Virus record (IMG/VR): IMGVR_UViG_3300028840_002524
Location: 32,001 to 96,000 of that record
Reading direction: 5' to 3' (one strand)
DNA length: 64,000 nucleotides
Source of the DNA: a virus
Within the stretch, counting starts at the first letter, position 1; every line of letters starts with the position of its first letter. Shown piece after piece: positions 27,747-53,138 of this stretch. A program made the translations under genes and the position numbers. Below the pieces are notes generated by a model. The model was not told the DNA's origin, searched no databases, and saw only the letters and a list, made by a program, of their open reading frames with translations.

Positions 27747-28972
27747 TGGGAAGCGTAAGCGCATGGGCCTCTGGAACGAACTCCTGTGAGGTACGGCTCA
27801 CACCCGTTCCGGACCTCTACAACCTCCTCCCCCGCGAGATCATCGAGCGAGATCAGGAGACGGGACACGTCACCTACCTCGACTACTGGGATGATCCCGA
27901 GGAGAGCGGGGTCGAGATATGGGATGACGCCGGGGCCATCTGGGACCGGACCGGATACAAGCCCGTGCTCGAATCCCTGTTCTGGGTGATGGAGCAGGAG
28001 AGCCGCGAGGACCTCATCGCCCTGGAGGACCTGGAGGATCTTCGGGACCCGGACAAGTGCCCGGCCGAGTTCCTCCCGGTCTGGATGCGCTCCCTCGGCC
28101 ACGCCGTCGAGGAGGGCCTCTCGGAGACCGCGCAGCGCGAGACTCTCAAGGCCATCATTCCCCTGAACAAGATCCGGGGAAAACCCCTCTCGTACGTGAT
28201 TTTCTTCCGCATGATCGGCTACCGGATCGTCCAGTGGCCCCTGTGGAAAAAGGAGATTCACGAGGCCCAGGACCGCTACGCCCGCTCCCGCTACGAGACG
28301 GTGACGGCCGTGACGGGGGAAGTTCTCGCCACCATCCCGGTGGGGGCGACGGCCCAGTCACCCATCCGCCCTACCTCCTTCCGCTGCACCGATGGCGTGG
28401 AGACATTCCGGGACGATGGAGAGGGGAACCTGATCGGGAACCAGGGCGGCGACGGCTCTATCATTTACGCCACGGGGGTGTACAGGATAAACTTCGATGC
28501 TGGACCGGCGGGCGCCGTCACGGCCGACTACGACCGCGTGGACGATGAGTACCCCTACCACGCGGCCCGAATCGACCTGGACGTGTACATCACCCCGATC
28601 TCGGGACCGCCGCCCACGGTGGTGGACGCCTCCTTCGTGAAGCAAGTGCTGGACCGCCTCGATGAGGTGAACCCCATCCACGTGCTTCTGAGGAACCTGT
28701 CCTTCATCCTCGAAGAATCGGACGAGCTAATCAACTTCGCCAACGACGCGATGATGTGCGGGCCGCACATGGCCGAGGAGGTCATTTCTACTGAGTGGAA
28801 CTTCTTCACGGGAGACCTCGGAGCCGAGGGGGAGGACTCCCATCTGATCATTGATCAGAGCAACGGGTTCCGCTTCTGTATCCTCGACGATCTCGCCAAT
28901 ATCGTGTGCCCGGCGAGCGATATAATGGAAATCACCAGCACCCCCGCGCAGCCGCATGATGGGGTCTGGTAG
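27746..28972 (+). CDS. baseplate wedge / P2 gpI-like tail protein
   Basis: 'LYNLLP', 'DPDKCPAEFLP...LG', 'KIRGK...IGY', 'VNPIHV'. Confidence 0.8.
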   Translation: MGSVSAWASGTNSCEVRLTPVPDLYNLLPREIIERDQETGHVTYLDYWDDPEESGVEIWDDAGAIWDRTGYKPVLESLFWVMEQESREDLIALEDLEDLRDPDKCPAEFLPVWMRSLGHAVEEGLSETAQRETLKAIIPLNKIRGKPLSYVIFFRMIGYRIVQWPLWKKEIHEAQDRYARSRYETVTAVTGEVLATIPVGATAQSPIRPTSFRCTDGVETFRDDGEGNLIGNQGGDGSIIYATGVYRINFDAGPAGAVTADYDRVDDEYPYHAARIDLDVYITPISGPPPTVVDASFVKQVLDRLDEVNPIHVLLRNLSFILEESDELINFANDAMMCGPHMAEEVISTEWNFFTGDLGAEGEDSHLIIDQSNGFRFCILDDLANIVCPASDIMEITSTPAQPHDGVW

Positions 28973-28980
28973 GAGGGACC

Positions 28981-29442
28981 ATGGCAATATCGACAGCGAC
29001 ACCTGAGTACACATTCGACATCCCGGCGACCAAGGCCGCCCTCCTGTCGGCGCTCGTGCGGCAGAACTTCAACGCTCTCGGGAGCCTGAACCTTACGACG
29101 GACGCGGCCTACCCGCCGAATCCTCGCCAGGGGCTCCCGCGCATCCTCGCCACCGACATCACAAACGTGAAGCTCCAGCTTTACTTGAATGGCGCGTGGA
29201 CGGACATTATCCAGCACCTTGAGTCCACGGACCCGGTGCCTCACAAGGTAATCGTGGCTGTCGCCGCCCCCGGCGCGGCCGCGTGGACCATAGACCACAA
29301 CATCGGGAGCAGAGTCATCGCCCAGGCGTATGACGGTGCTTGGAACCTCCTCAGTCCCACGGCCGTGCAGCAGCCGACCGTGAATAGGGTTACATTCAAC
29401 TTCGCCGGGGCTCAGTGGGGCTTCGCCGTCTGCATCGGATAG
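28981..29442 (+). CDS. tail fibre-associated protein
   Basis: GGAGG RBS; 'WTIDHNIG', 'VTFNF...G' module common in fibres. Confidence 0.6.
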   Translation: MAISTATPEYTFDIPATKAALLSALVRQNFNALGSLNLTTDAAYPPNPRQGLPRILATDITNVKLQLYLNGAWTDIIQHLESTDPVPHKVIVAVAAPGAAAWTIDHNIGSRVIAQAYDGAWNLLSPTAVQQPTVNRVTFNFAGAQWGFAVCIG

Positions 29443-29451
29443 GAGAATGAG

Positions 29452-51216: not shown

Positions 51217-51238
51217 CAGATTCGGAAGAATGTGAAGA

Positions 51239-51433
51239 GTGATGAAGTATTCTTGCGCCATTCACCGTGTGGGAAAGCAAGCAAAGAAAGGCGAAAAGTT
51301 TTGCCTTTCGAACCACAGGGGATCGCTTCTGTTTTGCACCAGAGCAGAGGGCCACAAAGGCGACCACGTTGCGCACGGTGTCGGCGGCAAACCGTTGAAG
51401 AGATGGCGAAACCCTTGGAAGAAAAAGAATTAA
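51239..51433 (+). CDS. small Cys/His (metal-binding) protein
   Basis: 'FCLS...FCTRAEGHKGDHVAH' C-x4-GH-x-G-x-H pattern. Confidence 0.55.
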   Translation: MMKYSCAIHRVGKQAKKGEKFCLSNHRGSLLFCTRAEGHKGDHVAHGVGGKPLKRWRNPWKKKN

Positions 51434-51458
51434 CAAACTCGATCATCTGGGAGGGGCA

Positions 51459-52241
51459 ATGAAAGAGATCAGGAAAAAGGAATTCGCCAACGGCTCCGTC
51501 TACGCCCTCGAAACGCACGATGGCTATCCGGTCGAGGTTACTGATACCTTTTTGCCGTTCTACACGAAAGACGCAATCGGCAGGCGGCAAAACGCCCTGA
51601 ACACGCATGATCTTGGCAGCAGGGCGGAGCGATGGATGATAGGCGTTTCTGTGATGAGCGGTTGCCCTGTTGGTTGTCGCTTCTGCGCCACAGGACAACT
51701 ACCGAGGTGGAGGCGACTTGGTGCGGGTGAAATCATAGACCAAATCCGGTTTGTCCTTGAGCGAAGAGATGAACGATTCGAGGACGCGAAGGAATACAAG
51801 ATCAATTATACGAGGATGGGGGAACCATTCTTAAACACCGAACAAGTCAAACTCGCTGTTTTATGGGCAGACCTTGCTACTCCAGGCGTTCACCAGTACA
51901 TCTCAACCATTGGCATTGAAGGATCGGACTTTTCATGGATCAGGAATGACGCAACCCTTCAAATTTCCCTGCATTCATGCGACGAAAAGAAAAGGGACTG
52001 GCTTATCCCATACAAGCGGAAAATGAGCATTGCCGATCTTGGGAAGATTCGAACAGAAAGCAATCTGAAAACCACCTTGAATCTGACTTTGGTGGATGAG
52101 CAGGATTTTGATATTCGTATTCTGAAGGACCATTTTCCAAAAGAAGAATTCTTCGTGAAACTCAGTCCTATAAACCGTAACGCGATCTCTGATTCCCACG
52201 GCCTTGGAGGCGGGGCAATCAGGACCGCAAACCTGATTTAG
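51459..52241 (+). CDS. RlmN/Cfr-like radical SAM protein, lacking N-terminal domain, resolving Cys and C-terminal AACGQL segment
   Basis: 'VSVMSGCPVGCRFCATG', 'R.L.AGEIIDQI', 'MGEPFLN', 'IST.G', 'QISLHS..EKKR.WLIP'. Confidence 0.9.
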   Translation: MKEIRKKEFANGSVYALETHDGYPVEVTDTFLPFYTKDAIGRRQNALNTHDLGSRAERWMIGVSVMSGCPVGCRFCATGQLPRWRRLGAGEIIDQIRFVLERRDERFEDAKEYKINYTRMGEPFLNTEQVKLAVLWADLATPGVHQYISTIGIEGSDFSWIRNDATLQISLHSCDEKKRDWLIPYKRKMSIADLGKIRTESNLKTTLNLTLVDEQDFDIRILKDHFPKEEFFVKLSPINRNAISDSHGLGGGAIRTANLI

Positions 52242-52249
52242 GGGGCGTT

Positions 52250-52369
52250 ATGGAAGAGATCATCAGGGATCTCGAAAGTTCCGGTTACGACTATGCAGTG
52301 GCGATTGCCACCAAGGCAGAAGTCGAAGCCGGGGCGGCTTGTGGACAACTGTCGGTTGTCTGCGAGTAG
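52250..52369 (+). CDS. 39-aa peptide carrying the RlmN/Cfr methyl-carrier motif AACGQL
   Basis: Translated by hand: MEEIIRDLESSGYDYAVAIATKAEVEAGAACGQLSVVCE*; AGGGGG RBS; absent from the ORF track (<60 aa). Confidence 0.85.
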   Translation: MEEIIRDLESSGYDYAVAIATKAEVEAGAACGQLSVVCE

Positions 52370-52378
52370 GAAAACGTA

Positions 52379-52409
52379 GCGGCTGGCCGGGGAAACCCGG
52401 CTATGCCGC
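52379..52409 (+). terminator. strong hairpin after the radical SAM pair
   Basis: GCGGC-TGGCCGGG-GAAA-CCCGGCTA-T-GCCGC (GNRA loop); weak U tract. Confidence 0.6.
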
Positions 52410-52438
52410 TAACACTCTCGATCAACTGTAAATTTATG

Positions 52439-52467
52439 TTGACAATCGCCTCATGATATGCTATACT
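52439..52467 (+). promoter_or_regulatory. sigma70-type promoter
   Basis: TTGACA-17 bp (ending TGATATGC)-TATACT with AT-rich upstream. Confidence 0.85.
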
Positions 52468-52495: not shown

Positions 52496-52774
52496 ATGCC
52501 AGAGGCAATGATCGAGTACAAGGATTGCGCGGGTCCGTGGCAGCCCTGGGCGATCCGAGTGGGCACCAGGAAGCAGATCGAGGAATCGGCCCGGAGTCTC
52601 CTTGAGGAGATCAAAGAGGAATACCCTCGCGGGCAGGTGTCCCTCGTGGACGGCCGTGGGAAGCGGCGTGGAGTGCGGCTGAATGGCAGAGAAACCGAGG
52701 CGCAGGAGGACCGAGAACGTCCGAGAGCCGTCACCACGCCGTTCTCGCAAGAGTTCGAGAACCCCCTGGGATGA
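52496..52774 (+). CDS. hypothetical protein
   Basis: First ORF after promoter, AAGGT RBS; overlaps next gene by 92 nt. Confidence 0.5.
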   Translation: MPEAMIEYKDCAGPWQPWAIRVGTRKQIEESARSLLEEIKEEYPRGQVSLVDGRGKRRGVRLNGRETEAQEDRERPRAVTTPFSQEFENPLG

Positions 52775-53138
52775 TCAGGAGCGGGACCACGCTAAGTCAT
52801 TCGGCCGCCAACAGGCCGGGTCCGGGTGCGGGTCCTGCAACAAGGGGGACATCCTCGGCGACGTGCTCCTTCTCGAAGAGTGCAAGACCACATCGGCCGA
52901 GACCCTCCAGATCCCCAAGGGCGTCACCATGAAGATATGCCGGGAGGCCCGCGCAATCGGCCGCACCCCGGCGCTCGGGTTCGGGTACGCCGACATGCCT
53001 CACGGGTTCCCACAGGAGTGGGTGGCCCTCCCCAAGGACGTGCAGGAAGTTTTGTACAGGATCGCCGCGTGCGCTGGCAGCAACCTTGACGATCCGAAGG
53101 TACGAGAGGAGATCAGGGAATGGGCAGCGAGACTGTAG
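52683..53138 (+). CDS. PD-(D/E)XK nuclease (Holliday junction resolvase-like)
   Basis: 'E...A..FG...GSG....KGDI....LLEECKTT'. Confidence 0.75.
   Translation: MAEKPRRRRTENVREPSPRRSRKSSRTPWDDQERDHAKSFGRQQAGSGCGSCNKGDILGDVLLLEECKTTSAETLQIPKGVTMKICREARAIGRTPALGFGYADMPHGFPQEWVALPKDVQEVLYRIAACAGSNLDDPKVREEIREWAARL

Follow-up and report, generated by a model that had tools for sequence, protein, structure and literature searches.

A phage radical SAM enzyme of the RlmN/Cfr type encoded in two pieces, with the methyl-carrier cysteine segment on a separate 39-residue peptide

We analyzed a 64,000-nucleotide window of viral DNA, bases 32001-96000 of the 116,195-bp IMG/VR record IMGVR_UViG_3300028840_002524 (G+C content 63%, completeness estimate 85%), and found that it encodes a radical S-adenosylmethionine (SAM) protein of the RlmN/Cfr type in two separate open reading frames (ORFs). 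The core ORF (51459-52241, plus strand) specifies 260 amino acids that form an RlmN/Cfr-type radical SAM domain with a beta-extension. The peptide ORF (52250-52369, plus strand) specifies an acidic product of 39 amino acids with the C-terminus GAACGQLSVVCE, and the two ORFs are separated by 8 nt and lie in different reading frames. Sequence comparison demonstrated the homology to RlmN and Cfr, the split, the conservation of this split in related phages, and the loss of the cysteine that corresponds to Cys118 of Escherichia coli RlmN. We favor the reading, to which we assign about an even chance, that the two products form a two-chain RlmN/Cfr-type (class A) radical SAM enzyme in which the peptide serves as a docked catalytic subunit and the reaction is completed without Cys118. 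A preliminary description of this locus, made from the sequence alone, had reported both ORFs, their spacing and a ribosome binding site for the peptide, and these assignments held up. A Shine-Dalgarno-like AGGGGG (52240-52245, plus strand) lies 4 nt before the peptide ATG and overlaps the TAG stop codon of the core, and a similar run, GGAGGGG (51450-51456, plus strand), can be read from the sequence 2 nt upstream of the core ATG.

The core matched the RlmN profile TIGR00048 with an E value of 3e-17 and 62.5 bits over profile positions 102-244 of 355, and the Cfr profile TIGR04432 with 40.8 bits, both scores being below the curated family cut-offs (290 and 550 bits, respectively). Its PDB sequence matches included RlmN and Cfr chains. 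An AlphaFold2 (AF2) model of the core, with a predicted local distance difference test (pLDDT) score of 90.9, gave RlmN as the top Foldseek match (E 5e-10 to 3e-7, TMq ~0.67), followed by Cfr, confirming the RlmN/Cfr-type core that had been recognized earlier from its motifs. RlmN (TIGR00048; 3RF9/3RFA, 4PL1, 5HR6/5HR7, 6FZ6) was thus the best match in both sequence and fold, and it shares with the phage protein the core, the beta-extension and the CxxxCxxC, MGEP, STxG, SLH and PxN motifs. By alignment, the cluster motif with Cys69, Cys73 and Cys76 lies at 51663-51686 (plus strand). RlmN is the C2-methyl synthase of 23S rRNA A2503 and tRNA A37. Cfr (TIGR04432; 9P0P), which has the same fold and the same two-SAM methyl-Cys template, is the C8-methyltransferase of 23S rRNA A2503. 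The similarity to Cfr was weaker than that to RlmN (sequence E 1e-5, fold 2e-5), and nothing indicates action on A2503 or a function in antibiotic resistance; the closest solved structures are those of RlmN, not Cfr. Furthermore, Pfam assigned Radical_SAM only, with no SPASM or RRE (PqqD-like) domain in the core. In PHROGs, the core matched the unnamed phrog_24834 only and the peptide gave no match.

Matches to the core begin at RlmN residue 112 (TIGR00048 position 102). They are preceded in the phage protein by 56 residues, which make up the beta-extension, compared with ~111 residues in E. coli RlmN. Therefore, the N-terminal HhH2 RNA-binding domain is absent, in agreement with the preliminary description. 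The polar sites with which Cfr binds the RNA backbone align with residues that are still polar or basic in the core (Lys114, Asn116, Tyr147, Thr166, Gln168, Asn208, Thr210 and Asn239/241). Judging from this alignment, these sites would fit a phosphate-bearing substrate. The basic VRKTRG stretch that precedes the methyl-carrier cysteine in RlmN is replaced in the peptide by an acidic AT.AE.E (ATxAEIE), and mean net charges were -4.6 for the peptides and +1.9 for the cores, compared with +9.9 for the long RlmN/Cfr-like forms.

The core chain ends before the xxCGQL segment and so does not contain the methyl-carrier cysteine loop, which is supplied by the separate 39-amino-acid product. The peptide consists of a helix, a beta-strand (YDYAVAIAT) and a GAACGQL loop, and is homologous to the last alpha/beta unit of RlmN together with its methyl-carrier Cys loop. 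Thus, the C-terminal helix, strand and AACGQL loop of RlmN are present here on another chain. Alignment of the GAACGQL motif places Cys31 of the peptide (codon 52340-52342, plus strand) at the position of RlmN Cys355 and Cfr Cys338. The consensus among the IMG/VR loci was M..IK.QLE..GYDYAVAIAT..EIE.GAACGQL.II.E, and residues L8, G12, A16, A18, A20, T21, E24, A30, C31, G32, Q33 and L34 were invariant in an alignment of 31 peptides. In addition to the two-chain arrangement, the missing HhH2 domain and the acidic loop, the system differs from RlmN in being phage-encoded, in its score of 62.5 against a cut-off of 290 bits, and in a glycine in place of Cys118.

A profile search of 1.84 billion representatives retrieved two naturally fused relatives, the uncharacterised metagenome proteins P0198 (347 aa) and P0201 (337 aa), which are rare and were seen on one to four short contigs. 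Both are collinear with the core, a 9-residue linker and the peptide, and the tail of P0198 shares 44% identity with the peptide encoded in the window. P0198 was modelled with AF2 (pLDDT 87, predicted TM-score 0.85), and the model as a whole gave RlmN as its top structural match (E ~1e-14, TM ~0.65). Its tail was modelled as a helix (281-293), a strand (296-299), a short helix, the Cys loop and a long C-terminal helix, with pLDDT 91-92 for the helix and strand between the core and the Cys loop. The collinearity of both proteins, together with this model, identifies the 39-amino-acid product as the final alpha/beta unit together with the mobile loop of the methyl-carrier cysteine, as had been proposed from its alignment with RlmN. 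The peptides end 5-15 residues past the cysteine, where the fused relatives have the long C-terminal helix. We also observed that P0201 carries Trp at conserved Gly sites (MWEP for MGEP, WFSYAYA for GFAYAYA); its source probably uses an SR1/Gracilibacteria-type code in which TGA means Gly, whereas the translation on record rendered TGA as Trp.

The split proved to be real, conserved and widespread. A search of 5.8 billion proteins returned 2224 homologues, from the best 120 of which conservation statistics were taken. Nearly all of these 120 are 260-265 aa long, with 61-69% identity, and the aligned ones share the same end point. The possibility raised in the preliminary description, that homologues would mostly be single fused ORFs, was therefore not borne out. 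Of 80 related IMG/VR viral loci, 79 have a peptide gene downstream of the core and on its strand, with all three frames relative to the core represented. The peptide gene is directly adjacent in ~45 loci and 0.3-2.7 kb away in the remaining ones, and there is a single peptide gene per core and locus. Pectobacterium phage Arno162, whose core is 33% identical, has the peptide gene two genes downstream. The ratio of nonsynonymous to synonymous substitution rates (dN/dS) of the peptide gene was ~0.04 inside a single gut lineage and 0.14 when lineages were compared, values that place it under strong purifying selection. One locus (L041, a 113-kb record, 90% complete) has an intact core, no peptide and a truncated gene after the core, which reads as a single decayed locus rather than a peptide-free variant. 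A frameshift artefact, arising from a sequencing error or from decay of a once-fused gene, could draw on the peptide frame, which is open for ~21 codons upstream of its ATG as noted earlier, but it is effectively excluded by the recurring stop in nearly all of the best 120 homologues, the peptide's own ATG and Shine-Dalgarno-like run, its occurrence in three frames at distances of up to 2.7 kb, and its dN/dS of 0.04-0.14.

Split-enzyme loci are abundant in gut (crAss-like), soil, aquatic and giant phages, and the design is common to thousands of phages. Carriers that can be cultured include Kehishuvirus 'tikkala', Pectobacterium phage Arno162/Wc4, Yersinia phage P778 and Moorella phage MTATph1. 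Phage enzymes that are encoded in two genes and reassemble are known, an example being the NrdA of phage Aeh1, which is split by the mobE homing endonuclease gene. The present system resembles Aeh1 NrdA in being a two-gene enzyme whose assembly is presumed. It differs in that the split is ancient and family-wide, in that the 39-residue piece carries a catalytic residue, and in that most loci lack an endonuclease gene. One locus (L007) does have a homing-endonuclease-like gene between core and peptide. This 271-aa gene (L007:4789-5604) shows a GIY-YIG-like N-terminal motif by eye and a sub-threshold match to NUMOD1 (E 0.0014), and the locus is flanked by NMNAT and NAMPT genes.

Gly62 of the core (GGC codon, 51642-51644, plus strand) occupies the position of the resolving cysteine, which is Cys118 in E. 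coli RlmN and Cys105 in Cfr, according to profile alignment to 3rf9 and 9p0p. This substitution, already noted in the preliminary description, was invariant in the 120 closest homologues (120/120). The MGEP SAM-binding motif was likewise conserved in the core homologues, and the invariant core cysteines among the closest 120 were the three cluster ligands only (C69, C73 and C76). Two candidates for a substitute resolver were rejected. The second cysteine of the peptide (VVCE), which had been suggested for this role, is found in a minority of peptides only and is not conserved. Core Cys65 is a cysteine in 54 of 120 cores and a valine in the core encoded by this window.

We sorted the 150 best representatives by the residue at position -7 from the first cluster cysteine, i.e., the Cys118 position, and by whether the chain itself contains a CGQ loop. 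A Cys at -7 occurs in long, RlmN/Cfr-like forms and in compact ones (~300 aa), and these nearly always carried the loop in chain. In forms with Gly at -7, an in-chain loop was never seen. Two fused phage families kept the Cys loop with other residues at -7: the 'GSNCGQ' clade (~300 aa; I, N, T or V at -7) and the 'RITCGNAILSG' family (~330 aa; Thr at -7), which has 268 relatives in IMG/VR and is exemplified by a protein of Bacteroides phage Versailles (ON453897). Both uncharacterised families resemble the split system in having an RlmN-like core without the N-terminal domain and no Cys at -7, and differ from it in being single chains and in the identity of the -7 residue. P0198 and P0201 have Thr at -7, and P0201 has Cys at -5. 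Loss of Cys118 as such is, by alignment, widespread among fused relatives and not tied to the split. Because fused relatives also lack Cys118, its loss cannot be an adaptation that works solely with a disposable peptide. As a separate observation among fused forms, Stenotrophomonas phage BUCTxx99 (OR529408; L083:2974-3933) encodes, within a tRNA gene array, an RlmN-like protein of 319 aa, a compact single chain in which both catalytic cysteines are present; its label 'prohibitin family protein' looks like a mis-annotation.

In a quick maximum-likelihood tree (short search, midpoint-rooted), which does not establish the order of events, one clade with a Shimodaira-Hasegawa-like approximate likelihood ratio test (SH-aLRT) support of 93 contained the split family, P0198 and P0201, a few split-like variants whose -7 residue is N, H or A, and a family from metagenome genomes of the candidate phyla radiation (CPR) and DPANN. 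All forms that have Cys at -7 made up its sister group (SH-aLRT 99), and the GSNCGQ clade fell outside. P0198 and P0201 therefore share with the split family their clade, the order of parts and the lack of Cys at -7, and differ in being single chains, in the long C-terminal helix after the loop and in having Thr rather than Gly at -7. Members of the CPR/DPANN family (L087-L100; 260-285 aa) have Gly at the Cys118 site and keep the last helix and strand, and they end before the Cys loop. No CGQ peptide was found within 5 kb of these genes in 14 genome loci, and the family was not found in IMG/VR. On this sequence evidence, the family appears to be an RlmN-like radical SAM enzyme that has neither of the catalytic cysteines. 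It shows that relatives can lose the methyl-carrier altogether and is uninformative about the target.

To our knowledge, no class A radical SAM methylases besides RlmN and Cfr have been characterised, and both depend mechanistically on two cysteines in one chain. In the phage family, one of these cysteines was moved to a 39-residue peptide and the other was lost. In the two-chain enzyme that we favor, the 260-aa core would bind the [4Fe-4S] cluster and SAM, and the peptide would dock through its helix and beta-strand as the final alpha/beta unit of the partial barrel, thereby bringing the GAACGQL cysteine into the active site. By analogy with RlmN, one SAM would methylate the peptide cysteine, and a 5'-deoxyadenosyl radical from a second SAM would generate a Cys-S-CH2 radical that attacks an sp2 carbon of the substrate. 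With Gly replacing the Cys118 base, the adduct would then be resolved by another route, or the chemistry would differ at this step. We infer the docking, the methyl-Cys chemistry and catalytic turnover by this analogy. The co-occurrence of core and peptide, even across 0.3-2.7 kb or a homing-endonuclease-like gene, argues for a functional pair. Cys118-less fused families that keep the Cys loop are common in phages, and finishing the reaction without Cys118 therefore appears normal in this part of the family. The candidate target by default, from homology with RlmN, would be an adenine in tRNA or rRNA, and gene neighborhoods in other phages suggest an NAD-type nucleotide as a second candidate.

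Several points weigh against this reading. In the RlmN and Cfr reactions, the methyl-Cys radical attacks adenine at C2 or C8, after which Cys118 or Cys105 takes a proton and triggers fragmentation of the C-S bond. This base is indispensable there, and the RlmN C118A and Cfr C105A proteins stay cross-linked to their substrate (PMC9692996; 10.64898/2026.02.27.707579). Retention of the split in thousands of phages is not explained by a two-chain enzyme. Furthermore, methylation as the outcome of the core/peptide chemistry is an extrapolation from RlmN, and binding of the core to the peptide is predicted through a sole surrogate, the model of the fused relative P0198. Either cross-links can be resolved independently of Cys118, by a different group acting in its place or owing to a substrate that needs no such base, or a covalent adduct is the product, and both outcomes would alter the textbook view of this enzyme class. 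The abundance of the family makes its target relevant to phage-host biology.

Gene neighborhoods gave the strongest functional lead, an association with nicotinamide adenine dinucleotide (NAD) metabolism. Clustering at 80% core identity reduced 162 loci to 39 lineages, for which neighbors within 4-5 kb of the core were counted. NAD genes were present in 15-16 of the 39 lineages (12 have NAMPT, 7-10 NMNAT-Nudix, 3 NAPRT and 2 NAD kinase; representatives were confirmed by Pfam), and Macro domain genes were also among the neighbors. tRNA genes were found near the core in 11 of the 39 lineages; 6 lineages had RNA-repair genes there, encoding RtcB, Tpt1 and two types of RNA ligase. At the level of whole records, a gene of the NAPRTase family (NAMPT/NAPRT) was present in 18 of 37 split-enzyme records, including 7 of the 14 that are at least 90% complete. 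In 15 of these 18 it lies no more than 3 kb from the core, on contigs of up to 476 kb and in several gene orders. In the control, the fused RITCGNA phage family, such a gene was carried by 5 of 49 records and by none of the 10 complete ones (Fisher p = 1.4e-4), although comparison of coordinates placed 4 of these 5 genes within ~6 kb of the fused enzyme. NAD genes were much rarer near the fused phage families than near the split enzyme.

On two giant phage contigs (L036 and L140), the island that holds the split enzyme also encodes NAMPT and NAD kinase, along with a Macro domain protein, a DUF7768 protein and two RNA ligases, and a third locus (L001) has a gene for the RNA 2'-phosphotransferase Tpt1/KptA near the split enzyme. 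The combination of NAD and RNA-repair genes recalls, by analogy, the chemistry of tRNA splicing and repair.

The NAD+ reconstitution pathway NARP2 (Nampt + Nmnat) was reported in ~1.1% of sequenced phage genomes (10.1101/2024.02.11.579819). A radical SAM gene is not mentioned in that study or in the jumbo-phage NAD-gene study, and our literature searches turned up no paper describing a split phage enzyme of the RlmN type or a radical SAM protein that partners NARP2. Adjoining Nampt and Nmnat genes are present in many relatives of the phage studied here and absent from its own genome (116 kb, 85% complete), in which we found no NAD-salvage gene and no partner gene of the tRNA or RNA-repair type.

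These neighborhoods raise the possibility, which we consider real but on balance doubtful, that the substrate is NAD+, nicotinamide mononucleotide (NMN), ADP-ribose or ATP, attacked at its adenine or pyridinium ring, and not a large RNA. This proposal concerns the target and would allow either methylation or an adduct as the outcome, and it therefore overlaps with the mechanistic readings. The proximity and enrichment of NAPRTase-family genes relative to the fused control speak for it, as do the NMNAT-Nudix, NAD kinase and Macro neighbors. The absence of the RNA-binding HhH2 domain, the acidic replacement of VRKTRG and the roughly neutral to acidic charge of core plus peptide, compared with +9.9 in the long forms, are also in its favor. 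However, no NAD-salvage gene is present in the genome under study, and half of the records that carry the enzyme likewise lack one. Shared function is not the sole reason why accessory genes cluster in large phages, and the tRNA and RNA-repair neighbors would fit an RNA target. Furthermore, we know of no radical SAM chemistry on NAD. The tight linkage to NAMPT and NMNAT nevertheless suggests an undescribed component of, or companion to, phage NAD+ reconstitution against NAD-depleting immunity. A more specific version, in which the enzyme is a new arm of phage NAD+ counter-defence and, for want of a resolving cysteine, the peptide stays methylene-bridged to the adenine or pyridinium ring of an NAD-type nucleotide, e.g., as a decoy or inhibitor of host NAD-degrading immune enzymes, seems to us quite improbable.

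The preliminary description had proposed that the two-gene arrangement serves to leave a disposable peptide permanently bound to adenine. In this scheme, the methyl-Cys radical would add to an adenine in RNA, DNA or a nucleotide, the link would remain unresolved for want of Cys118, the peptide would leave attached to its target, and a fresh one would bind. We consider this unlikely, although parts of the evidence agree with it: neither core nor peptide has a conserved cysteine that could stand in for the residue replaced by Gly62 in all 120 closest homologues, the RlmN and Cfr mutants that lack the equivalent residue form stable cross-links, the split is ancient and under selection, and the peptide chain stops shortly after its cysteine, where fused relatives continue into a long helix. 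On the other hand, Cys118 is missing as well from P0198, P0201 and the two large fused phage families, in which the Cys loop cannot be shed. The peptide bears a structural helix and a hydrophobic strand, confidently predicted in the P0198 model, that favor tight binding over exchange, and there is a single peptide gene per locus. A 39-aa adduct on ribosomes, tRNA or phage DNA would be of no evident benefit to the phage.

A further alternative, named in the preliminary description, is a modification in the manner of a ribosomally synthesized and post-translationally modified peptide (RiPP). Under this reading, the peptide itself would be the end substrate, altered at or via its cysteine by the core and, at some loci, also by a second radical SAM enzyme and a small methyltransferase encoded between the two genes. 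In 12 of the 39 lineages, a second, generic radical SAM gene is indeed present near the core, sometimes with a 148-aa methyltransferase gene and often between core and peptide, giving an order of enzymes followed by peptide. RiPP leader peptides likewise dock by strand addition to a sheet. Nevertheless, we judge this alternative very improbable. A RiPP precursor would be unrelated to its maturase, whereas the peptide is homologous over its full length to the catalytic tail of the enzyme, as seen in the fused relatives. The core lacks SPASM and RRE domains, no recurrent protease or exporter was found among the nearby genes, and the pair stands alone in this window and at most loci. A second radical SAM enzyme as an obligate partner was rejected for this window, since the generic radical SAM proteins of the other phages have no homologue in this genome. 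The sole other radical SAM gene here (record positions 28345-29448, outside the window; L086 1417-2520) encodes 367 aa with a CGHSCLYC motif. It sits between capsid-like and ParB-like ORFs and is unrelated to the partner radical SAM proteins of the other phages.

The core/peptide pair closes its transcription unit, as judged from a hairpin and a promoter that follow the peptide gene. The hairpin lies just 3' of the peptide stop codon (52377-52411, plus strand; predicted RNA folding energy -31 kcal/mol, z = -4.5) and, although it lacks a U-run, is the probable end of the unit. A sigma-70-like promoter (TTGACA-17-TATACT, 11/12 matches, extended TG; 52439-52467, plus strand) begins 28 nt further on and opens the next unit in this phage of 63% G+C. 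The neighbors of the pair are DNA-transaction genes, encoding a helicase, a UvsX-like recombinase, a Holliday-junction resolvase and a Cas4-like exonuclease.

Downstream of the promoter, a 92-aa ORF (52496-52774), for which no family match was found, overlaps the start of the resolvase-like gene (52683-53138) by ~90 nt in another frame. Upstream of the core lie two overlapping candidate genes: a 76-aa ORF (51232-51462) ends in an ATGA that overlaps the core start codon, and a 64-aa ORF (51239-51433) would encode Cys/His pairs and a KKKN tail.

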